Below, in pieces: positions 7,096-48,654 of a DNA stretch of 64,000 nt. Origin of the DNA: Octopus vulgaris (taxonomy: Eukaryota); contig OX597824.1 in assembly GCA_951406725.2 (NCBI GenBank), positions 5,270,001-5,334,000 on the forward strand, in the 5' to 3' direction. The position numbers were made by a program, and so were the translations under genes. How positions within the stretch are numbered: position 1 is the stretch's first letter; the number at the start of each line of letters is the position of its first letter. The notes beneath the pieces were generated by a model that saw only the letters and a program-made list of their open reading frames with translations, made no database searches and was not told where the DNA came from.

Positions 7096-7390
7096 TAATG
7101 TGGTTCTCATCATCACATAGAAATCATTTTCCAAATAAAAAGAAAAGTTTTATTTTCTGACCAAAATATACGAATATTTTATCAAGTTTTCGAAACCAAT
7201 ACATTAAAATATGACATTTTGGCCAAATTATAAAGATAAACCATAATGGACTGTCAAAGAGTAATATGTTTTATTCTCGAGTGAAGAATTACAACGCAAA
7301 AAGGCAAAGACATAAGTTCTAGCGTGGCTGTGTGGTAACGAGTTCAGTTCCTACCCACGAACTTCCGTGTTCAGTCCTTGGACGAGTGTT

Positions 7391-7620
7391 ATTTCTTTAC
7401 TACCCACAAGGGGCTAAACACAGAGGGGACAAACAAGGACAGACAAACGGATTAAGTCGATTACATCGACCCCAGTGCGAAACTGGTACTTTATTTATCG
7501 ACCCCGAAAGGATGAAAGGTAAAGTCTACTTCGGCGGAATTTGAACTCAGAACGTAATGCCAGACGAAATACGGCTACGCATTTCGCCCGGCGTGCTAAC
7601 GTTTCTGCCAGCTCGCCGCC
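7391..7620 (-). mobile_element. tRNA-derived SINE family B, full length, nested in a decayed family A SINE
   Basis: Head GGCGGCGAGCTGGCAGAAACGTTAGC, B-box GAGTTCAAATTCC, central CTTTCATCCTTTCGGGGTCGATAAA..GTACCAG, tail TTTGTCCCCTCTGTGTTTAGCCCCTTGTGGGTAGTAAAGAAAT. Confidence 0.85.
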
Positions 7621-8102
7621 TTATAGTTTCTCACTATAGCTTCAGACCAATCAAAATCTTGTGAGTATTTTTGATAGAAGGAGGAAAATGCGTAAAAAAA
7701 TTGTAGTGTCTTGGATCAAGTATGAACCACAAAAACAAGATAAAATAAAATAAATATAAACAAGATAAAATAAAATAAAAGAAAAAGAGAACGAAGTATC
7801 AAAGAATTTAATGGAATTGTCCGACGACTCAGGTCTTCAGAATCATGAACCGGAATATTCCTGCTTACTTTTCTAAATTCATTAAAACTTTGACTTTAAA
7901 TTAAATAGGTCCACGTGTCGTGTGGTTCAGAATTTCAGTTCGCAATCACAGGTTTTAGAGTTCAAGTCCCAGTGAAAAGTTGGCCGGGCAAGTGTATTCT
8001 GCTATATTCCCAGGGCAGATCAGTCCGTCTGCATGAATTTGGCTGACGCAAACCGCGTAAAAACTCCGTCCTATGTGTATGTGTATACATACGTATATAT
8101 TC

Positions 8103-19144: not shown

Positions 19145-20991
19145 GTTGTTGTTGTTGTTGTTGTTGTTACTGTTGCTGTTGCTGTTTTGGTTCGGTTTGT
19201 TTTTGTCATTCAGTAACGACGCTGACTTCATAATTGCCTGATACGATATAATACTTTGTCATGGATAATAAAGGCAGAGAACTAAACAAAGCAAAAAAAA
19301 AAAAAGAATCAACGAAACGAAAATGTATTTAATAACAAGAACAACAACAACAAACTACAACAACAATAATAATAATAGTGACAATAATAGAAGATAAATG
19401 TATTTTTCCGTCTTAAAGTAATTAATTTAACACAGAATCTGTCTCAGCCAAAGAAGGATTAATCTGAATTTCAATTTCTGTCTCCGTATCATATTGTACT
19501 TAGTCAAACAATAGGTCTTATTGTGACAAATCCAAATAAAATATAGATTGGCAACAGAAAATAATGGCCTTCTGGCCAGGCTGCATTAATTCATTTGCGT
19601 AAATACACCAATTGTGCAATAAATTTATCAATATTATGTCCTTGCAATGACCAAATGGAAATACATACGAATAATATGAGACGTATATTTTATATTCAGC
19701 GTTGAACAACGTCAGGCGTAGTTCAGTTTACATTGAGTGAAAAGCAAAAAGCAAAACGGAAGTGGAGAAGTAAGGGTCTTCACTTCATATTCCATCAAAC
19801 ATGGTCCGTGCTGCTTTTGTCAACGTCATGGGAATTTTCGAACAGCATTTTAGCTACCATAGTGAAGCGCAAATAGAAGCTAGATTCGTTAACTTTGAAT
19901 CGATCTTAATGTTTATATTGCAGAAGGACAGAAAATTATAGTGTCAGGTACCAAAAAGTCACCTCCATAAACAATAATTGGTTCAATGCTGTCATACTTT
20001 ATGTACTGAGAAAAGCGATTTCACTTATCGTAAATAGCGCTGTATATGTCGACCTGATATGCAAGTCGATCTTATAGGTCGATCTTATACCGTATTGGTC
20101 GATTCTCAAACGTATTGTACGCTCTTATGGGATTGCTCTTATTGGTGACAAGTTTAGGATCAGCTTAACTGAGCTGACTATAGCATACATACTGTACGTT
20201 GTAGTGAAACACCATGTACAAAATCTCTGTGTAAACCGACAAACGTTGAGTTCTAACTGACGACTATCATATACATACCGTAAATCATATACGAAAACAC
20301 AGAGTAACAGCTAAAAGTAGATAAACAAACCGTATAAACCTTCGCCATTTTGTATCAATGATACAAACAAGGAGTTAGTGGTGCCAAACCCACTCAGCCA
20401 ATTGCAGAACTATTTTTACTATAGCTGGATTTGTTCAAATTTCATCGTTTTCGCTTTCCAAATAGTATCGCTGAAAATACTTTACCCCCAAGGCTTCACT
20501 TGGAAAAAAATTAAATAAGGTGTCAGTTTTAGAACGACAGTTCTATTTCGAATAATATTTGTAATAACTTACTGGAGATATTGAAAGTCGTGCATAGAAA
20601 TTATTAACCAGTCGGTCGTAGACATTCATCTTGGGTCTCCACTTCATTTAACCGATTCCTATTTTTGGAGAAATGATTTTCAGGCTTAAAGGAGTCGGTT
20701 ACACACCTCAATTTAAGGTAAGTAAAACGGCCGTTGCAACGAGCAGATGAAAACGTAATATTAATTATAATTACTAATGGTAATCGATTCTAGTGATTAT
20801 TAATGTTAATCAAATCTAATCAAGCGAGAGGAACGACATCTAAATTGCAATTAATTAAAACTAAAATTTCTATTACGCAAGAAATGACGAAAGCATTAGC
20901 TCCAGGATTCATGTTCGATATGGATACTGTAGCACAAGCAAGGGGGGATAATAAAGTATATTCCTTTTAATCAGAGAAGTTGATTTTATAT

Positions 20992-21578
20992 TGGTTTCAA
21001 ATTCTGGTACAAAGCTCGCCGCTTCGGGGGCGAGGACAAGACGATTACATCAACAATAGTGCTCGACTGGTAGTTATTTTATCGATGCCGAGAGGAGGAA
21101 GGGTAAAGTCGACTTCGGCGGAATTTGAATTCAGAACGTAGCGACATACGAAATACCTATTTCTTTACTACCCACAAGGGGCTAAACACAGAGAGGACAA
21201 ACAAGGACAGACAAACGGATTAAGTCGATTATATCGATCCCGGTGCGTAACTGGTACTTATTTAATCGACCCCGAAAGGATAAAAGGCAATGTCAACCTC
21301 GGCGGAATTTGAACTCAGAACGTAGCGGCAGACGACATACCTATTTCTATTTCTTTACTACCCACAAAGGGCTAAACACAGAGGGGACAAACAAGGACAG
21401 ACAAACGGATTATGTCGATTATATCGACCCTAGTGCGTAACTGGTACTTATTTAATCGACCCCGAAAGAATGAAAGACAAAGTTGACCTCGGCGGAATTT
21501 GAACTCAGAACGTAATGGCAGACGAAATATTGCTAAGCATTTCGCCCGACGTGCTAACGTTTCTGCCATCTCGACGCT
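20992..21578 (-). mobile_element. Head-to-tail trimer of SINE family B
   Basis: Three successive bodies with junctions at 21156/7 and 21340/1. The leftmost unit is more diverged and has a different tail. Confidence 0.85.
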
Positions 21579-22768
21579 TTAAGTTGATTTTACATAAAGT
21601 CAATTAGTAGCAACGAGCGGATTATAATGGCATTACGGTTCTAAATTTTACGGATGGTGTTCAAAAAAGCAGACAGTTAAGGTGAAAATAAAAAAGTATT
21701 TGATTACAATATGACAACTGAAGTCTCCTTATGAAATCGTTTTTGTTATTAAACATTCAGACAAATTTTGAAAATAGTTGTAGTCTGGAATCGTTCTTCA
21801 GCTATTTCAAAGGCGAAGTCAACTTTCGTGGGATTTTAATGTTCAAATACTTGGTTAGCGAATTGAATTATTTAAATTAGCCATCTCGGATCAGCTCAGC
21901 TGGCATGCTCTCTCAAGTTCATCTTGGTTGTAGAAAAAAAATAAGAAAAATGTAATTCCAAAACTTCTTTCGATATTTTTAATGGTTTTATTCAAGAGTA
22001 AAGAAGTTTATTAAACGACATTCGCAAGCCTTCCACATTGATCAGATTAATGTAGTTGATATACAGTTTGAGCATCTGTGAATCGATTTCCGTAAGGAAA
22101 ATGTAAAGGAGGAGCAGGAAAGAGGAAAGAGGAGGGAATTCAAAGTTAAAATATTTTCTGGTTGTGGAAAAAGAAAGGCTAAACATTAAGATGCAATACT
22201 TACGCTTCCGAATGTTTAAAAGAATCTCAAAACTCAAAAAGAATATGTAAACAACTTCGGCAAAATTATCTTTTTATTGATATGAATTTGTTTTTAACAG
22301 AAACGTGTTCTTCATTTAAATAAACTATTTCGTCTAATGTCGAATCGAACGTATTCGATATATGTTAACTTTGTTCTTCAGCTACGATTTTACTCACTTT
22401 TGTACATAATTCATAAAATCTATATTAGAAGTCGAAGAAAAAGTATTTGATAATGAGGAGTCAAAGACTAATATAATCTAATTAATGATTTTCACGTAAA
22501 ACTTACATTTGAAATGGGTGTGGAAATGAACTGTTTTGAAAAGAGTTTTTGGTGTAATGTTTTGTTCATCCGTTTGATGTTGTCTTCGGTTGTTTGTTTG
22601 TTTCGTTGCTTTCAGACCGTTACAACACTTTTATCTGGTGACATCAAATAACAACAAACGATAGATTTCGTTGTCACCCTCTTGATTAGGATAACACTAT
22701 CTCTCTATCTCTCTCCCTCTCTTTCTCACACACACAGACACACACACACCACACACGCTAACATATAT

Positions 22769-24456: not shown

Positions 24457-24658
24457 CGCCATAGCGTCGACTGTGAGCTGGTAGCTGTGTACAGTCACCC
24501 CAATGGCACCCAGAGCGAGCCCTGGTCGCCATAGCGTCGACTGTGGGCTGGTAGCTGTGTGCAGTCGCCCCAATGGCAACCAGAGCGAGCCCTGGTCGCC
24601 ATAGCGTCGACTGTGGGCTGGTAGCTGTGTGCAGTCGCCCCAATGGCGCCCAGAGCGA
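24457..24658. repeat. GC-rich 70-bp tandem repeat x~2.9
   Basis: CGCCATAGCGTCGACTGTG.. starts at 24457, 24527 and 24597. Confidence 0.95.
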
Positions 24659-25487
24659 GATAAATCGTTATAACTCAAACTATTTGAAATGTCAACGAAA
24701 TCTCTATCAACTTACACAACCCATCTTAAGAATATATAAAGAACACATTAATAAAATTTTATATTTGCTGTAAGTTAGCTTTGAATGAAATCAGGCAGTT
24801 ATTTTTCATGAGCAGGGTATTGGCAATGGTTTGTGACTGCCAGAATATTATTGAGAATGTCCGGAGTACATAATTAAAATCGTCATTAATTATTTTAATG
24901 GAAAGATCGTAGAGTCACTTCGTAAGTCGATTTGCCTGGAGGTGTGAACAAATTGAACGTTTCAGGCCACACAGCCTCCGCCCCCTGATTTTCCTCCGCC
25001 TCCTTCTTCTTCTTCTTCTTCTTCTTCTTCTTCGGAGAGAGAGAGAGAGAGAGGGAGAGAGAGAGGATCCGCCCTGATTGCAATATGGAGAATGAAAGAT
25101 GTATTAAATAAAGTTGTGAGATGAAAGCATATGTGGGGAAAAGAGGAAAACTACAGAGTGCTGATGTGAGTGGTGTGCAATGAGAGAAGGAGGAGAAGGT
25201 GAGTGAGATAGAACTGGTGGGAGGAAGAGAAGTTTTTAAGATGTCTCCAGGCTAGGCAATAATCATTATTGCCAGTCCTTCCTCCACAGCATTTCGTGCC
25301 CTCATTTGCTCATATCCCCGCCACAGTTGTTGGCTTATAAAGGTTGAACAGGAGCATTAATCACAGCATTTTGACTGGTCGAGCTGCACCTGAAAAGGCC
25401 AGACTCATTATGTCTTCTACATCCAGTAAGTGAAACGAAAAGAGATTTCAAGAGGGTCCGATCAGCTAAGGTTGATGACCCTTTTTT

Positions 25488-30940: not shown

Positions 30941-31992
30941 TGACCGTTGTTGTGTATTTTTGTGGCTAAAATGACTTCTCATGGAAACAGAAATCTAATT
31001 CGTGAATTTTGAAAGTGGACTTCATTGTTGCTTGCTGATAGACGCTGGCCACACGGACGTTCTGTGAGCGCTTCAACTGTGATTCGAACCAGCCGACATA
31101 TACGGCCGACCGATCGTTGCTTGTGTCATTCTCTAACACTCATGAATTGCGACATAAGGTTTTACGTCAGGAAGAGTTTTTATCGTGTGTGTGTGTGTGT
31201 GTGACATACATACATATGTATATAGGTAATGTGCTATGAAATCTGACATGGTGAATGATTTGTTTGAATATTGTAATGGAAATCGAATATTAGCCACATA
31301 AAGGTAACCGAAACTTGAATGGAACCAACGCATAAACTAGCAGACACTCGCCATCACTCACTTTCAAGCACGCGCGGGGACACACACACACATACACACA
31401 CACGATAAGAAAAATATTTTACTGGCGTAAAACCTTATATAACACACGCACACAAACACACTCACACACACTCACACACACACACACTTCTGCACACCTT
31501 ATCAAAGAATCAAACATGTACATTGGCGATTAATGTTTCACCTTCAATTATCTTCAATTCAGTCTTTCTAATATGAATATTTCACCATTAAATCGATGTT
31601 TCACCTACTTTTATAATTATATTCAATGGCGGGCAAGCTATGTTCTCATTAAAATTTAACAACACCAACAAGAACTGCAACGTCGACGGCTGCAGCAAGA
31701 TCAACGACATTATCAATAACACATACAGCGACATGACTCCGATAATAATAAACAAATATGGCAATACCCATGATAGTAACCTGTTCATCTTTTTGTCTTT
31801 TTATGAGAACATTAAAATAAGAAAAACTGGTGAAACAAAGAAAAAAATTAAAATAAATAAATATTGTCCCTAAGCGATTTGAATATTATGGTATGTTTGG
31901 ATTTTTTCCTATGTATATGTATGCGTTGTTTGGTTGGAATCTAGGAAGGACAGCGCTGTTGGGGCTGGCGCCAATTGAAACAGAAACATATG

Positions 31993-32610
31993 TTGGTTCC
32001 AAAGTTTGGCACAATGTCAGCTGTTTCGAAGAAGGGGTGTTAAGTCGATTATATCGATCCCAGTGTTCAATTGGTACTTATTTTATCGATCCTGAAAAGG
32101 ATGAAAGGCAAAGTCGATCTTGGCGGAATTTGAATTCAGAACACAAAGGCGGACGAAATGCAGTTAAGCATTTTCTCCGGCATGCTAACGTTGCTTATTT
32201 CTTTATTGCCCACGAGGGGCTCAACACAGAGGGGACAAACAAGGACAGACAAACGGATTAAGTCGATTATATCGACCCCAGTGCGTAACTGGTACTTATT
32301 TATCGACCCCGAAAGAATGAAAGGCAAAGTCGACCTCGGCGGGATTTTGAACTCAGAACGTAAAGACAGACGAAATACCTATTTCTTTACTACCCACAAG
32401 GGGCTAAACACAGAGAGGACAAACAAGGACAGACAAACAGATTAAGTCGATTACATCGACCCCAGTGCGTAACTGGTACTTAATTTATCGACCCCGAAAG
32501 GATGAAAGGCAATGTCGACCTCGGCGTAATTTGAACTCAGAACGTAGCGACAGATGAAATACCGCTAAGCATTTCGCCCGGCGTGCTAACGGTTCTGCCA
32601 GCTCACCGCC
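31993..32610 (-). mobile_element. Second head-to-tail trimer of SINE family B
   Basis: Junctions at ~32195 and 32378/9. The leftmost unit is diverged with the alternative tail. Confidence 0.85.
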
Positions 32611-33784
32611 TTCAAGGTAGCATCGTTTATTAAGAAATGAACGATAAAGAAATGAGTATAGCCTTAACCTCATTCGAGGATATGTTCCATTACCTATTGT
32701 TGCAAATTTGAAGGTAGGCCATATCAGTTTTATTTTAATCTGGTACAGCTACGTGATTTTGGTGTAACTCCTGCCGAACCGTTCATGCGTGGCTAACCCC
32801 CCCCCCCATTTTATTCTTTCTAGTCTATGACAATCGTACCTAACTAGAAACTACGCGATCGAAGAACTAATCGATATTATACAGGAAATAGTGATGAATG
32901 GATTAACAGAAAGGGCATTTTGGTTTTTTTTTAAAAAAGATAGCGCCTTAGGCCTCATAAAGCCTCAATCGTCTTTCACAGTAAAAACAATGGCCGAAGG
33001 CTTTCTCGTCGTTTACACGTTGGACAAAATACATTACCCAATTGTATATTTTTTTCTAATTTGCTCTCGAATTTCTTTTTATGGGAGGTCGTCGTGAGTA
33101 AAGAGGTGACTCTCAGAGGCAGCTCCATTTCCTGTTGGTTTGTTATAAATGACTAAGTTCTGAATGTCTGGATGTTGTTTCAAATGGCTTTAGCGACATT
33201 TAAAACAAATATTTATCCCATAAGACAAAAATAAATAGGACAGAAGCTGCTTTTTCTTTCTTTTAGATCGTGAACAGTTCCACAAACAAAGAAATATACG
33301 AATCCGCTAATGGGCAAATTGTTTACAAATTTCTTTAATTTACAAAGTTGTAAGCTTGATGAATTCGTGTGTATCGCAGGTGTTTCGTCTAGTCTCAAAA
33401 AGGAAAAAAGAAAAAGACAGCAGTTTACCTATGTTTTTGTTTAGCTGTAGGTCTGTCTGAACCGAAAGACCTCTCAACAAGATTTCCAGCTGTGATATTG
33501 TTAAAAGACTTTTATGTTTCGAGATTATACTATAAAGTGTCGTTTCATTTTTAAAGAGTAATTGAGGGGGATTTAGCTAATGTTTCTGGTAAGTTGTGCT
33601 ATACAAAATTCTCTTGTTGGTATAATGTTATGTATTCTGTCGTGTTATTAGGAGAAGTATGAGATATCACCGACTGAAAAATGATATCTTATACAAAATA
33701 CATTGACCTTGTATACTGCTAAAACTATAGGTAAAAGAGCCTGAGGTGTTTGTAGTTACTTGCCATATTAGGTAACTTTATACA

Positions 33785-34232: not shown

Positions 34233-34276
34233 TACTTTGAGTGAAGGTTGTTGTTCGATAGTATCGATTCCAGTTG

Positions 34277-34467
34277 GCAGAATCCTTATCACGTCAGGCG
34301 TAATACTGAGCGGTATTTCGCCTGCCGTTCCGTTCTGAGTTCAGATTCCGCCGAGGTCGATAAATTAAGTACCAATTACGCACTGGGGTCGATGTAATCG
34401 ACTTAATCCCTTTGTCTGTCCTTGTTTGTCTCCTCTATGTTTAGCCCCTTGTGGGCAATAAAAAACA
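34277..34467 (+). mobile_element. SINE family B copy with TSD, inserted in an older opposite-strand SINE
   Basis: TSD GTATCGATTCCAGTTG (34261-34276) / GTATCGATGCCAGTTG (34469-34484). Decayed family B sequence continues at 34485-34630. Confidence 0.8.
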
Positions 34468-35187
34468 AGTATCGATGCCAGTTGCTGATTGGTGTTTTAT
34501 TTTATAGAACCCCACGGATATGTCAGGCAAGGATGATCTCGGTGGGATTTGAACACAAAAGTCAATGAGTCTCAACTAAATACTATTAACACATTTTATC
34601 CGACGCTTTACCGTTTCTGCCATTCCAGCGCCGTTACAAGGATTATACGAAAGCAGACAACGAAAATAATTAAGCGAATTGTCTTTGATTCTTTAATAAA
34701 AAATGGAATAGATGGTCATATATGGCATCTCTTTGGTCATATGTCTGATTGGTAAGCATTGACCCTCGGTCAAATAACAGCATTCTATTTTGATTTATTG
34801 GAAGCATTCGGTTAGATGTAATTAATATCCTTGGAATTAACTCCCGATATTAAATTCGTGGGAGTCGACCGTAGATGCATCTCCCATGCGGAAATCTCCT
34901 CTGAGGTATTGCTCCTAGTTCTATTTTTGCTGTCTTGTGTTGGATTGTTCAGCAATACTAGTTTCCGATTGAGAACAGTGATCGATCAACCGACCCAAAA
35001 GAACAAAAAAAAAAAAAATCACCAGACGAACAAAAGGCAAAAAAACAAAAAAAAAACAAGAAAAACAAAAACGAGGAAAACAAAAGAAACAAACACAAAA
35101 GAAAAGTAATGTCCATTTCCTGAATGGAAATCATTTAGTGCATTGCATTTTTTAAATACTAAAGTATTGCCTATGCGGTTTCGACTG

Positions 35188-42445: not shown

Positions 42446-42517
<72 letters not shown>

Positions 42518-42736
42518 GACTGACGGATGTGATGTCGTTTCGGCTCCGAAGGTAATCATTTATTTTGACTATTTAAAAGTGTATATTGACAAACATTTTT
42601 TGCTTAAAAGTTGTACAACAACATCCACTGTAAACCTTTGATAAATATCGACACAAAATTTTGCCCCTTGTGGGCAAAATTTAAAAGAAAAATTCTCATA
42701 GCCTTCGTGGTTTCATTTAGCCATTTTATTTCCAAA

Positions 42737-44875
42737 ATGGCCACTGACCACCACGAGGCTGAGTTGCAAGTCAAGCGTGACGGAGAAACAGAAAAACAGG
42801 ATGCTCTGTTAGCATACGCCGAACCTGACAACTCCACCACCACCAACAGCAACAAATACAAAACAAAGGTCGCAAGGCCAAGCACCGTCAACACCATCAG
42901 TGAGTCCACCACCACCACCAACACCATGGCAGAATCTGCTACTAAAACTGCTATCCCTACTAAAGATATTGCCACCAATAACAACACCAACATCACCATC
43001 ACCGCCACCAAAGACCGTGCCGTCAATGCTACAAATACTACCAACACCACAGCCGTCACCAAGAACGACAATAACAACAACAACAACGACGACAACAACA
43101 ACTCCCTTCAACCACTGCTCACTCCATCACCAACAAGTGAAAAAATAACGACGACAAGCAAACGAAATGTCGAATTTTGCCCTAGTGCAGGACTAAAGTA
43201 CGCAGGCAATTTTCCACCCCTTCCTACTTGCACGATCGAACCTAACACACCAATTTTACAAACTGCAGCCAACAACATCACCACAAGCAACAACAATAAC
43301 AAAACAACAACAAATTTCGCTGAGGCGATTAAAGAAAAAAAAACAACAATATACTTTACGGCTCAACAATTACAGGACACGAACATCAAAATAACAGAAT
43401 CAGAAGGTATCGTAAAAATTAACATACCAGAAGATATTTTGGAAAATGAAAAAAGACGAACAATCATTTATAAAATAGTTAACAAAAAAACAAAAATCCC
43501 AGAGAAGGCCAACACAGGCAAAATAGAGAAGTGCCTGAAACCCATCTGGGATCACAAAGAATATGTAACCTGGTGGAACAAATTTGCCCACATACAAGTC
43601 GTTTTCTACACCGAAGAGTTAGCTAGACATTTCTCAACGCTAACTCTTCACTCAGATGAACTCCAACTTACACCAAGCTATCGGGGACAGAAAGTGACTA
43701 AGATCACTCTAAACAATGTCCCCAAAATAGCCAATAGTCTATGGCTTGTAAAGGCTTTATGCATAAAAATGGCGAATTATACTATTTTGGAAACCACAGT
43801 CACAGAGCATAAAAACTGGGTGGGAAAGAAAATAGAATTTCTTCTACATATACATCATGAAGATATAAAAAAAATACCCACCCAGATATGTGTATCAGAC
43901 GACCACAAGTTATATGTGGTCGTCGATGGCAGAAGACCACGTTGCTACATATGCGGCAGTGAGCAACATCTCAAAAAAGACTGCAAATCTGCCGCAAGAA
44001 AACAACAGCAGCCGGAAACAAAAACAAATAAACAAGGTCTACTACCCACACCACTTTTTGCAGGAACAAACCTCACCAAACAAACAACCACACCAACTGC
44101 AGCACCAAGAACAGAAGCAGCATCACCAACAACAACAACCAAGAATATACCAACTCCCAAACCAAGGACATCTGCCAAAAAGACACCCAGCATAAATGAA
44201 GAAACAATTACAACTCCAAATCCCCACAAAATTGAGACCCTAAACAACACAACAATACCCACAATCACTCAAACACAAAATACCCAAACCCCACATCCAA
44301 AACCGCACACACCACAACCAAACGCTCACCAACCAACACCAACAACAAAACCAACACAGTCGACAATAGACCCCAATACTTTCCCTCTTCCAGACTCCGA
44401 TTCGTCTGATCTGTCATTAGACGAAGAAGACACGGAAGATTGGCAAATAGCCACAGGGGGGAGAAGAAAAAGGGGAAAAAAAAGAAAAGAAAAAATAACA
44501 AACAAAGCGGGAAGATACACCACTCCCGAAACAAAAACATCCACAGAAAACACACACATCAACACAAACACACCATCATCAAACCCCCCAAAAATGTTGA
44601 CAGCCATAAACACAAACAACCACGACCTAATGGAACACATTAGGTCAAACACTAACATTACTGAAAACGACATAAAAACAAGTAACCACCCACACACAAC
44701 ACCACCACAACACATTAAAATAATACACGTGACACAGAACACATACAGCACCCTGAAATCTCTTTACCCTGATGCAGTAGGGAGATTTCAAAAGTACTCA
44801 TCAAAAAAACTGTATAAAAGCCTCATAGAAGAAGACCGTGAGGTGAAAGACAAAGAACTTTCGGAAAACAAGTAA
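42737..44875 (+). CDS. LINE ORF1 protein (nucleic-acid binding, CCHC zinc knuckle)
   Basis: Open frame from ATG 42737, in frame with track ORF 42611..44875. Contains VVVDGRRPRCYICGSEQHLKKDC (CX2CX4HX4C), T/N/P-rich low-complexity flanks and an acidic-then-basic patch DEEDTEDWQIATGGRRKRGKKRK. Confidence 0.88.
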   Translation: MATDHHEAELQVKRDGETEKQDALLAYAEPDNSTTTNSNKYKTKVARPSTVNTISESTTTTNTMAESATKTAIPTKDIATNNNTNITITATKDRAVNATNTTNTTAVTKNDNNNNNNDDNNNSLQPLLTPSPTSEKITTTSKRNVEFCPSAGLKYAGNFPPLPTCTIEPNTPILQTAANNITTSNNNNKTTTNFAEAIKEKKTTIYFTAQQLQDTNIKITESEGIVKINIPEDILENEKRRTIIYKIVNKKTKIPEKANTGKIEKCLKPIWDHKEYVTWWNKFAHIQVVFYTEELARHFSTLTLHSDELQLTPSYRGQKVTKITLNNVPKIANSLWLVKALCIKMANYTILETTVTEHKNWVGKKIEFLLHIHHEDIKKIPTQICVSDDHKLYVVVDGRRPRCYICGSEQHLKKDCKSAARKQQQPETKTNKQGLLPTPLFAGTNLTKQTTTPTAAPRTEAASPTTTTKNIPTPKPRTSAKKTPSINEETITTPNPHKIETLNNTTIPTITQTQNTQTPHPKPHTPQPNAHQPTPTTKPTQSTIDPNTFPLPDSDSSDLSLDEEDTEDWQIATGGRRKRGKKRKEKITNKAGRYTTPETKTSTENTHINTNTPSSNPPKMLTAINTNNHDLMEHIRSNTNITENDIKTSNHPHTTPPQHIKIIHVTQNTYSTLKSLYPDAVGRFQKYSSKKLYKSLIEEDREVKDKELSENK

Positions 44876-44917
44876 CCTTTTCTCTCTCCTTTTCCTTTTT
44901 TGCACTTTTATCGGAAC

Positions 44918-47900
44918 ATGCTCAGAATAGGTAGTATAAATGTACGTGGCTTGGGGTCGCCTTGGAAACAAGGCTACCTGTTAAATGACATCAAGTCACT
45001 AAATCTGAATATCATAGCCATCAGTGAGACCAGACTCCACAGCTTGCGGGCACTCCAGCACATTTTCGGTACACATTTCAACATTTATTTTTCTCCGTGT
45101 CTACCGAGAATGGGCGGAGGTGGCACCGCGGTGCTTATCCGGAAGAGTCTGGATCTCAAAGTAAGAGCAAATTTCCTAGACCCGGAGGGTAGGCTGGTCG
45201 TTTTGGATGTCGATGGCAGCAATGAGTGTGCTTTTCGACTGATAGCAGTTTATGCTCCGTCCTTAACAGGCCGACCAGATTTCTTTCGACGTCTAGAGTC
45301 TTTCATGGGAACGTCTCGTCCTTTACTTTTAGTGGGGGATTGGAATGCCACCCTGGACACGCATCTAGACTACGTGGGCAGAGATAGCAATAGAAGGGGA
45401 TGCAAATGCCTCAAAGACCTGCTCAGACGTTTCCAACTGTCTGACAGGTACCGACTGGACCACCCGAATGTGCCAATGTGGACATGGAGTAACCGCATCG
45501 GGTCGTCCAGATCATACTTAGATAGAGTATTCTGTAGGACAATAGATAAAAATAGTGTAGGTTGTCCACAATTTCATATAGTCAGTTACACAGATCACAA
45601 GTTTGTGACTTGTACACTTGACTTAGATAAGACACATAGGCAGGGTCCTGGTTACTGGAAACTGAACGCGTCTTTTACAGCACGACAGGTTTACAGGGAC
45701 CGGATCAGCACATTAGTTAAGAGAGCTTTGACGGGTACCATCATCAACAACAGATGGTGGTATTCCCTAAAAAAGCGATTAAAGCAGAATCAGTCAGATA
45801 CAGTAGAGCCCTAGCATTAGACCGAAATAGAGTAGAGGGAGAATTAGTTAAGGTTTTAGAAGAGGCACTTAGAACTGGCATCGCGTCCAACGTACTGGCG
45901 GCGAGATTGGCCCTCGACCAACACCTCAACGCCAAACACGAGGGATGCGTTGTCAGAGCTAGGATGCGTGCTCTGAGGAACGAAGGAGTTGGAGCCGCCC
46001 AAGAGGCCCGAGTGGTGGAGACGCAACGAGGCAACAGAGCCACCATCAAGTCTCTTATAGATGAACAGGGGCGCGAATTACTCGAGCCTAAAAGGATGTG
46101 TGGGGTTTTTCAACAACACTTCACCCAACTGTTTGGGACAAGTGGTGAGTCAGAAAGCAGAGTGGACTTTAGTGCCTACCTGCATGCCTTGCCACGACTC
46201 TCAGCAAGGGAGGTGGAGTCTTGTGAAAAGCCTATCACAGCTGCGGACGTACAGGATGCGATGGTAGGCTGCGCGAGAGACAAGTCACCAGGCTTGGATG
46301 GTCTGCCCTACGAATTTTATTTTCATATGCCAGACTTGTTTGGAGGCGTCTTGGCAGCTGTCTACTGCAACTGGCAGCAGAACGGGAGTATTCCTGCTTT
46401 TGTAAAGCGAGGAGCAGTGGCACTGATCAAGAAAGACCCAAACAAGGGGGACGTCATAGATAATTTCAGGCCCATCACTCTGCTCAACGCAGATTTGAAA
46501 ATTTTGGCCAAGGTGTTAGCCGAGAGGTTGGCGCTTGTCATCAAGAAACTAATCGACAAGGCGCAAACATGCGCCGTGCCGGGTAGAAGTATTCATGACA
46601 ACCTCCATCTGATGCGCTACATCATAGACAGGGTAGTTAAAAATCCTGGCATGGGTGGGGCGCTGATCAATTTGGATCAATCAAAAGCCTTCGATAGGGT
46701 AGACCATCACTACTTGGAGGCTGTCCTCAAAGCGGCTGGTTTCGGTCCAGTTTTCCGCAGTTGGATCGCTGCCTTATACAGCGGCATCCGCTCAGTAGTT
46801 CGCGTAAATGGTCATCTATCCAGACCTTTTAACATCATGCGTTCGGTTCGTCAAGGATGCCCCCTCTCATCGCTGCTGTATGTACTGACTCTTGAGCCAC
46901 TACTGCGGAAACTGGCGACGCTGAGGGGCATCCCACGAGAGCTGGGATGCGGGAGGAGCGTGTCTGCATACGCGGATGACGTCACCGTCATAGTGTCGAG
47001 CTACGAGCACATCGAGCTGGTCGGCGAGACACTGAAAGAATACGAAGCGGTAACGGGAGCAAAAATTAACCGGGAAAAGTCAGTGGGCTTGCGGCTCGGC
47101 ACCTGGAGAAGCAAGCCCATGCCGTCCAACAGCGTCTCCATCGTGGGACGCTGGACGGACGGACCGGTTAAATTGCTCGGGGTCTGGTTCGGTCCGGACC
47201 TCCAAATGGAGAAGAACTGGGGCGAGATAACGACTAGGGTGGCTACTCTCACCCAGAAATGGACTGAGAGAAAGCTATCCCTAAAAGGTCGGGCGGAGGT
47301 GGCGAACGCGTACATCGCATCCGTCATCGAGTACCGTCTGACCGTCGTGCCTTGTCCCGACCCTACCATCACCAAACTGGAACGCATACTCTTCCGCTTC
47401 TTGTGGAAGGGAAACGTTCCGATGGTCAGGCGATCCATTTGCTGCCAACACCCGCTAAATGGAGGGCTGGGCATGCCGTGGTTGATGATGCGCAGACATG
47501 CGCTGAGACTGCGACATCTCCGGCGCTTCATAGACAACGGTGAACAGGGGTGGTCGCCTTTTGTGCGGCGCGCTTTCCCGCAGCTCGTCTCCTTGGACGA
47601 ACTACAGTCATGGATCAAGCAGAGACCGAGGCTAGGCGAATGGCACCGTGAGTGTCGCGTTGCTCTCAAGCAACTCTGCCGTCCGGGATCGAACTTGTGC
47701 GACTCCATCACAACAAAGGCATTCTATAGAGGATTAGTGGAGGGGAGGTGCGACGACGAACTCGGGCAGAGTCTGGGCGTCGACGAGGAACACCTGACCC
47801 GCCTGTTCAGGACAACTTTCGGGCCGGGACCTATGAACAATCACCAAAGATCCCTGGCCTGGCAGTGCTATCGAGAAGCATTACCTGTTCGGGATAAGCT

Positions 47901-48354
47901 CTACAGACACGGTTCCAGACACACTGGACCGACTTGCCCGAGATGCGGTCAGAGCGACGAAACCGTTCTGCACGCACTCGTGCAATGTCCAACCATTTCC
48001 GACCTGTGGGCTTATGCCGAACGGCTGCTGTCACGTGTGGGACGAATCCGCCTATCGGCCGAGTCTATCGTGAGAATTGCTCCGCCCCCTTCCCTCAACC
48101 GGGAAGGCAAGGCAGTTTTCATCGTACTGGTGGCCATGGTGAAAGAATGTGTGTGGTGGACTCGAGCGAAAGGATTAGAGACAAACACTTACCTCTCTGG
48201 CCATTCGCTCATCAACTTTTTCAAGTACCACTTGAAAAGGAAGGTGAGAATGGAGAGGGAAGTTTTGTCTCGCGAAAGATTCAATAAAAGATGGGTGAAT
48301 GTTGCAAAGATGGTGCGTGCTAGTAACGAAACCATTTTGAGCATGATCCTGTAG
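44918..48354 (+). CDS. LINE ORF2: apurinic-like endonuclease + reverse transcriptase + C-terminal Cys/His finger; one frameshift at 45769-45774
   Basis: APE motifs GSINVRGL, IAISET, AVYAP, LVGDWN, SYLDR, TDH in track ORF 44900..45814. RT motifs KSPGLDGLP, FRPITLLNADLKILAK, LDQSKAFDRV, SVRQGCPLS, AYADD, KLLGV and C-terminal CPRC..ETVLHALVQC in track ORF 45754..48354. Adding one A to the A6 run joins WWYSLKK to AIKAESVRYS. Confidence 0.93.
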
Positions 48355-48654
48355 ATCGTAAAAAAGAAAGAAAGAGAGCATTTTTGACCTCATGTGTTTA
48401 TTTCCTCCCTGACTGGGGTTCCCGTGGTCTTTTCTGTAGGCTTTTCTTCCCACGGATGAACCCAATCTTGTTATACCAATGTTTACACCATTATTTCTGT
48501 GATACACGATTTTCTTTTTTTCTTTTTTTTCCTCCTCTCGATCCCTTTTGATCGCAATCTTACATTTTTATTTTTTTCCACCCTCGAAAAGAAAAGCTCT
48601 GCATTTGTATTTGTCCCCTCTGTATTCAGCCCTGTGTGGCTAATAAAAGAAAGT

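Follow-up and report, generated by a model that had tools for sequence, protein, structure and literature searches.

Several LINEs of the Tx1 clade are target specific, with Tx1 inserting in Tx1D, Keno in U2, and Kibi and Koshi in microsatellites, and the crocodilian SINEU/Tx1-Mar system has its target in Mariner-N4_AMi, where SINE copies have been inserted sequentially in tandem (PMC4494074). In the case of R1 and R2, 5' joining by annealing of the cDNA to the upstream 28S target has been proposed (PMC2718515), and for R2Ol, annealing of a read-through 3' end has been described, with 3' target sequence raising insertion in an assay (PMC6530143). Growth by unequal recombination has been proposed for the TSD1-(SINE)n-TSD1 arrays of the blood clam (PMC11481361) and the SINE-derived satellites of squamates (PMC10702118). 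Named octopus and mollusc SINE families include OK, OR1, and OR2, together with CORE, Nin-DC, and Meta (PMC4758252, PMC4824008).

The SINE arrays analyzed here, seen in a 64,000-nt stretch of the Octopus vulgaris genome (the window), resemble each of these systems in part. As with SINEU/Tx1-Mar, a SINE and a Tx1 LINE have a common target that lies within another repeat, and SINE insertions are in tandem; there, however, the target is a DNA transposon and the tandem heads are kept with a TSD between them, whereas in octopus the SINE family is its own target and the joins are mostly seamless (PMC4494074). An AP-endonuclease LINE, a fixed site, and a TSD are shared with the Tx1 clade, and octopus relatives use (TATC)n and (TC)n, but the octopus target is a tRNA-type SINE with a related tail (PMC4494074). 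As in R1/R2, sequence common to the template RNA and the target goes with precise 5' junctions (PMC2718515); unlike R1, R2, and R2Ol, which are autonomous rDNA elements, the octopus SINE is nonautonomous and its own body provides the homology, and both steps are ones that we infer here (PMC2718515, PMC6530143). One head, many headless units, and a single outer TSD are features that the octopus arrays share with the clam and squamate arrays (PMC11481361, PMC10702118). The clam units are also 3' truncated, and site-specific insertion is not proposed in the available text, whereas octopus arrays keep the whole tail and their units are often unrelated and of families of different age (PMC11481361). 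In the available portions of the literature covered (including PMC4494074, PMC2718515, PMC11481361, PMC10702118, PMC6530143, PMC13282606, PMC4758252, and PMC4824008), we found no case in which a SINE and a LINE both target the head of that SINE; Repbase or Dfam entries may describe these families. The individual parts have precedents, and the targeting of a SINE to its own head is what appears to be new.

The SINE family and the sample

A 233-nt consensus built from 118 full-length hits consists of a tRNA-like head, a body extending to about base 168, and a tail. The tails distinguish three groups that have the head and body in common: old A1, intermediate A2, and young B, the last with tail variants B1 and B2. 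The family is short (233 nt), dispersed, TSD flanked, and of high copy number (56,316 exact B1 tails in the 2.8-Gb genome), and B has a complete head of its own and occurs as TSD-flanked monomers. Motifs at about bases 13 to 24 and 75 to 86 of the consensus resemble A and B boxes by eye. The window yielded no tRNA with ARAGORN, and window positions 7300 to 7700 had no tRNA match in Rfam. There is no T4 run inside the unit. The RNA fold of the head is strong (z, -4.6; one copy), whereas a tail hairpin and a tail-plus-target hairpin were no better than shuffles (z, 0.4 to 1.4). A cruciform target is unsupported, the DNA hairpin at the site being weak and equaled by 25 of 300 shuffles. Target bases 52 to 57 have their reverse complement in the final six bases of the B tail (window 21152-21163, minus strand). 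Inverted (head-to-head) SINE pieces, broken near a self-complementary stretch at about bases 160 to 168, were seen at L132:4834-4968 and L183.

The sample comprised 360 loci and the window, with 1.9 Mb parsed for head counts. Many loci, chosen by exact tail, were drawn from contig C1 (first 5 Mb), and some sets were chosen by junction pattern. These junction-picked sets were left out of the counts of end types in 113 arrays, of 5' truncation, and of arrays versus monomers; those fetched by then were included in the rare-variant, distance, head, TSD, unit-order, and haplotype counts. The features of the window are collected in Table 1; in addition, 2.9 copies of a GC-rich 70-bp repeat (95% match) lie in tandem at 24457-24659.

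Table 1. SINE and LINE features of the window
Feature	Position	Strand	Description
21-kb trimer, 5' TSD	21581..21592	-	12 bp; flanks whole trimer
21-kb trimer, unit 1	21348..21580	-	Full-length B1 SINE (tRNA-like head, shared body, Tx1-type tail); consensus 1-233, 93%
Junction of units 1/2	21342..21347	-	Extra 6-nt repeat of tail end
21-kb trimer, unit 2	21158..21341	-	Headless B1; consensus 50-233, 94%
21-kb trimer, unit 3	20989..21157	-	Old A1-type remainder from consensus 50, 82%; A1 tail; inferred host
21-kb trimer, 3' TSD	20977..20988	-	12 bp
Second trimer, unit 1	32380..32612	-	Full-length B1, 96%
Second trimer, unit 2	32196..32379	-	B2 tailed, from consensus 50, 94%
Second trimer, unit 3	31992..32195	-	Old A-type remainder, entry at consensus 17, 84%; lower end approximate
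B1 monomer	7390..7622	-	Full length, outside any SINE; 50C head variant
B2 copy	34260..34484	+	Internal deletion; 17-bp TSD (34260-34276, 34468-34484)
Young Tx1-type LINE	42517..48652	+	In (TATC)n array; tail related to SINE tail; start approximate

Tail-to-body junctions at base 50

The first-pass annotation of the window had proposed that the units of two trimers join at one internal nucleotide. Junctions 21157/8, 21341/2, and 32379/80 indeed enter the consensus at base 50 (GGTAT), and the exception that it had placed near 32195 is a junction (32195/6) entering at base 17. It had also proposed a check of the sequence 3' of B tails across the genome: GGTAT follows 29,873 of the 56,316 exact B1 tails (53%), and the strict SINE site (consensus base 50) follows 18,511 (33%), while a reversed-pattern control for tail plus SINE site had 0 matches genome-wide. 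The SINE site thus makes up 62% of GGTAT-followed B1 tails, as against 12 of 641 free GGTAT motifs (about 2 to 3%) in 464 kb of unselected DNA, some 20 to 30 times the motif expectation, a ratio that local duplication inflates. The same 464 kb, not chosen for SINEs, held 12 B loci that are arrays and 11 that are monomers. In an array-enriched sample of 190 B1 tails, SINE sequence followed 128, entering at base 50 in 121. Base 50 is G in 267 of 278 B junctions and C in 4. Base 17 is a second recurrent site, mostly of the B2 tail (6 of 10 B2 junctions). More generally, junctions of A2 and B2 tails with the head recur near bases 17 to 20, with AGAA common to tail and head (L033, L097, L106, L118; window 32195). 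The base-50 junction is confirmed as a real and genome-wide feature.

Outside SINEs, the TSDs of B monomers are about 10 to 17 bp long and start directly after the tail, with a GGTAT-like start in both copies; where a TSD was found, its upstream copy starts with GG in 11 of 17 B1 monomers and 8 of 14 B1-ending arrays. Because it is found in both TSD copies, GGTAT belongs to the target, and the idea that it is the element's own end is ruled out. The preference is loose outside SINEs, where TATAT and A-rich TSD starts are also seen. GGTA follows the array in 11 of 25 B1-ending cases versus 0 of 20 B2-ending ones. At four loci (L005, L007, L009, L055), B copies apparently lie at a GG(T/C)A site of one other repeat, without an ordinary TSD, the 5' end at L007 being fused via a GGCGG match; at four others (L039, L074, L118, L293), the tail is followed by 14 to 20 nt of the SINE site and then by unique DNA, for which a read-through RNA copy or a later deletion is possible. 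The copy at 34277, which had been adduced as a further TSD-bearing insertion into an old SINE, does have a TSD that starts with AGTATC, but its host, an old SINE body continuing to about 34623 on the minus strand, is antisense, and the site is near base 150 to 158 rather than base 50.

A Tx1-type LINE at the same base

A degraded LINE occupies the SINE site at 1 of 30 loci read. Its relatives, collected by protein similarity, lie at base 50 to 52 in 26 of 30 copies, the seed included, the other four being without a readable LINE tail. Full-length copies adjoin a SINE head ending at base 65, which amounts to a clean 16-bp TSD (bases 50 to 65); in 16 heads (20 regions, 14 independent loci), base 65 immediately precedes the LINE 5' end. 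Because these heads diverge more than the LINE 5' end itself (37/720 versus 12/675), they are host DNA. The LINE encodes a zinc knuckle in ORF1 and EEP, RVT_1, and zf-RVT domains in ORF2 (AP endonuclease, RT, and zf-RVT), and its best named match among 52 is "Transposon TX1 uncharacterized 149 kDa protein" (E value, 2.4e-90; 31%). The SINE B tail and the tail of this LINE are similar but not identical (82 to 88% over 34 nt), in line with the earlier description of the young SINE as Tx1 tailed. A share of more than 20% of copies in one target, the criterion given in the available part of PMC4494074, is exceeded by the LINE (26/30) and by the SINE (at least 18,511/56,316). These observations suggest that the site-sharing Tx1-type LINE is the likely supplier of the enzymes that copy the B SINE. 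It is a candidate rather than a certain partner of B1, because the tails are not identical and the youngest LINE copies use 50C while B junctions have G.

Base 50 is C in all 16 heads before the full-length LINE, whereas other LINE copies sit at G. The youngest copies (L311-L328) are all in 50C heads, B tails almost never precede 50C, and the window monomer at 7390-7622 is of the 50C type. It is possible that 50C heads represent an escape from targeting followed by retargeting by a younger LINE.

The LINE in the window has a tail about 84% similar to the SINE tail over 43 nt. As the direct SINE partner it is ruled out, the tails in its 30 loci running into TATC-type repeats, and it is a relative of the likely partner rather than the partner itself. 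It is very young: over its last 199 aa, 52 of the 150 genome matches scored show 100% identity. Many are clustered in tandem. In the window, its ORF2 is split into two overlapping frames. Further Tx1-like families with the same tail style, followed by (TC)n and ATT-type repeats, were seen at L045:3879-4300 and L081:1063-1550 (ends approximate). A T-run-plus-tail pattern had 41 matches, and the 30 loci read among them contained no LINE.

Evidence for insertion into older SINEs

That the young subfamily inserts site specifically into preexisting SINEs, the central proposal of the first-pass annotation, is supported by the base-50 excess, the LINE at the same base, double-head copies with a TSD, the mostly unrelated units of dimers, and the older last unit. 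Double-head junctions have 109 exact matches genome-wide. Among 30 such loci read, 16 consist of a head or tail, a TSD, a full B unit, and base 50 again, several of them with host-private letters in both TSD copies; the other 14 begin at a tail junction already present. As to relatedness, no rare variant is shared in 39 of 50 B>A dimers and 22 of 32 B>B dimers, and units are barely closer within arrays than between them (0.141 versus 0.151 for B>A; 0.096 versus 0.106 for B>B). The B units of the 21-kb trimer differ by 11% over positions 51 to 165, and each is nearer to a unit of the other trimer (0.087 and 0.096) than to its own neighbor (0.113). The units of dimers are mostly unrelated to one another.

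The terminal unit had been described as always an older copy with a different tail. This applies to both window trimers, in which the last units are 82 to 84% similar to the B consensus versus 93 to 96% for the others, but in 113 arrays from loci without junction-pattern selection only about half end in an old unit (51 old A type, 46 B type, 16 truncated). The bodies of last A2 units are as diverged as those of A2 monomers (0.062 versus 0.065), with first units at 0.033, and no near-identical last A2 units were present among 59. B1 precedes B2 20 times and follows it twice. B-ending arrays are without an age gradient (first versus last unit, 0.029 versus 0.027). Last A2 units carry B-type letters at bases 63 to 66 more often than A2 monomers (21/72 versus 3/38; p=0.014) and fewer mismatches at bases 51 to 58 (8/277 versus 30/250). 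Contrary to the prediction for a retained host TSD, rare-variant sharing is not concentrated in bases 50 to 66. At window:19200-22700 and at L170, the flanks and the 3' end of the old unit are present in organism C (about 7% diverged); no preinsertion (empty) site was seen at these two loci, where the cross-species contigs break inside the repeat. A TSD-age test separated no class, not even A2 from B monomers (p=0.52), and is without power.

Origin of the single head

A single head is present in 147 of 153 full-length first units, and about 4% keep two heads. B-only markers are found in the heads of arrays whose last unit is old: 50C occurs in 17 of 70, compared with 0 of 78 old monomers (p=9e-7) and 28 of 85 B monomers, and 45G in 16 of 68, compared with 0 of 73 and 28 of 81, respectively. 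The B-derived share of these heads is estimated at about 0.7 (95% interval, 0.4 to 1.2). Base 21 looks B-like (array heads, 28/41; B, 54/73; A2, 15/33), with an interval too wide to decide. Head mismatch in a larger sample (0.068 and 0.087) is closer to B (0.054 and 0.085) than to A2 (0.098 and 0.116), while in the first sample the heads of A2-ending arrays (0.063) were near A2 monomers (0.065). Head divergence correlated significantly with neither the first nor the last unit. The 5' join varies, since at L115 and L277 the host head is cut back to base 47 to 48 and a full new head follows. The pattern suggests that the single head comes mostly from the incoming element.

Long arrays

Adjacent units less than 3% apart make up 10% of pairs in trimers, 30% in tetramers, and 63% in arrays of at least 5 units, so that satellite-like homogeneity of SINE-derived units is seen in arrays of at least 5 units and not in dimers or the 21-kb trimer. 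At L133 and L111, among the matches listed, units share their 5' part with the downstream neighbor and their 3' part with the upstream one. Such staggered variant sharing in arrays of at least 4 units likely reflects local unequal exchange. Matches 64 to 69 bp apart also suggest head-only tandem runs (C10:17996024-17996506, C14:84691109-84691408, and C13:69036075-69036320).

Proposed mechanism and alternatives

We consider it probable that the B SINE, likely via the Tx1-type LINE, inserts at base 50 of older SINEs, that 5' homology joining leaves one head, mostly the incoming one, and that long arrays then probably lengthen by local unequal exchange. The proposed mechanism takes as its starting points that B tails, inside and outside SINEs, adjoin a target-derived GGTA(T) that opens the TSD and that a heterologous LINE at base 50 leaves the host head (bases 1 to 65) with its 16-bp TSD. 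When the insert is the SINE, the 16-nt overhang would match the SINE cDNA and anneal in register, and the cDNA head would displace or replace the host head, giving a seamless 184-bp addition. Every insertion recreates a tail-GGTAT junction, and such junctions are reused. Pol III would then read through arrays and, because the unit lacks a T4 run, the target would follow the tail in array transcripts; pairing of this RNA with the nicked strand might raise self-targeting above that of the bare motif. This is the weakest step: RNA pairing fits the letters at 63 to 66 and the mismatches at 51 to 58, but target selection or array contraction also fits, and the B-type letters in last units could stem from contraction rather than from read-through RNA. 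The staggering of variants in arrays would finally be the product of unequal exchange.

The main alternative to joining at integration, although an unlikely one, is that insertion always follows the conventional two-head course and that slippage or single-strand annealing reduces the 65-bp head repeat to one copy afterward. Double heads do exist, as apparently do head-only runs, unequal exchange acts in these arrays, and a B share of about 0.7 at bases 45 to 50 fits crossovers spread over bases 1 to 65; however, the near universality of single heads, in the youngest arrays too, would demand a fast collapse while 184-bp repeats persist, and base 21, for what its wide interval is worth, is also B-like. 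About as unlikely, as the source of most arrays, is the retroposition elsewhere of preformed multimers, in which a B head would read through into a downstream unit. This would account for B-type heads with a single outer TSD, it is compatible with the lack of a T4 run and with a few headless truncated dimers (L028, L055), and last A2 units are mutually closer (0.152) than A2 monomers (0.208). Copied multimers would yield headless truncated forms, and so the deficit of such 5'-truncated forms in arrays (2/106 versus 10/78 monomers; p=0.005) speaks against it, as do the absence of clonal last units, the need for degraded A1/A2 tails to have been mobilized in the B period, and the different frequencies of GGTA after B1- and B2-ending arrays; it also leaves the LINE at the same base unexplained. 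The first-pass annotation had named a TSD shared by a whole multimer as telling against insertion in place, and the 21-kb trimer has just such a TSD, perfect over 12 bp despite its old last unit, which we count against the preferred reading; it is not decisive, because insertion in situ also leaves the host's own TSD flanking the array.

In its original form, the earlier proposal had the young unit arrive headless and use the pol III head of its host. A minority of such events is compatible with the lower bound of the B-derived share (about 0.4), with the first-sample head divergence of A2-ending arrays, and with a few first units (L052, L126) whose variants agree with those of the last unit as far as base 95 to 120. 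As a rule, we judge borrowing to be very improbable, given the absence of 45G and 50C from old monomers, the B-like mismatch of heads in the larger sample, and the complete heads of B monomers. Local tandem duplication between an internal GGTAT and a TSD-starting one scarcely merits credence as the sole process: it fits the near homogeneity of long arrays and contributes to those of at least 4 units, but it cannot yield B>A arrays, dimer units are unrelated, and the B units of the 21-kb trimer have nearer relatives elsewhere. Judged from these comparisons, it is refuted as the only route to arrays.

As an extension of insertion at base 50 with 5' homology joining, we tentatively suggest a closed loop, of which we are rather doubtful as a whole. 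The Tx1 LINE would target the head of its own passenger SINE, and the SINE would therefore overwrite the heads of older relatives and append its tail; read-through array RNA would guide the next round, and the 45G/50C variant would have been spared G-type insertion before a younger LINE subfamily turned to it.

Implications

These arrays offer a testable route from dispersed to tandem repeats that would be seeded by site-specific retrotransposition rather than by chance recombination. For the second-strand step of LINE integration, which is poorly understood, they provide natural 5' junctions by the tens of thousands, and homologous (SINE) and heterologous (LINE) inserts can be compared at one base. 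The arrays, being ordered, also date the SINE subfamilies of the octopus. Repeat annotation will miscall chimeras from such arrays as families.
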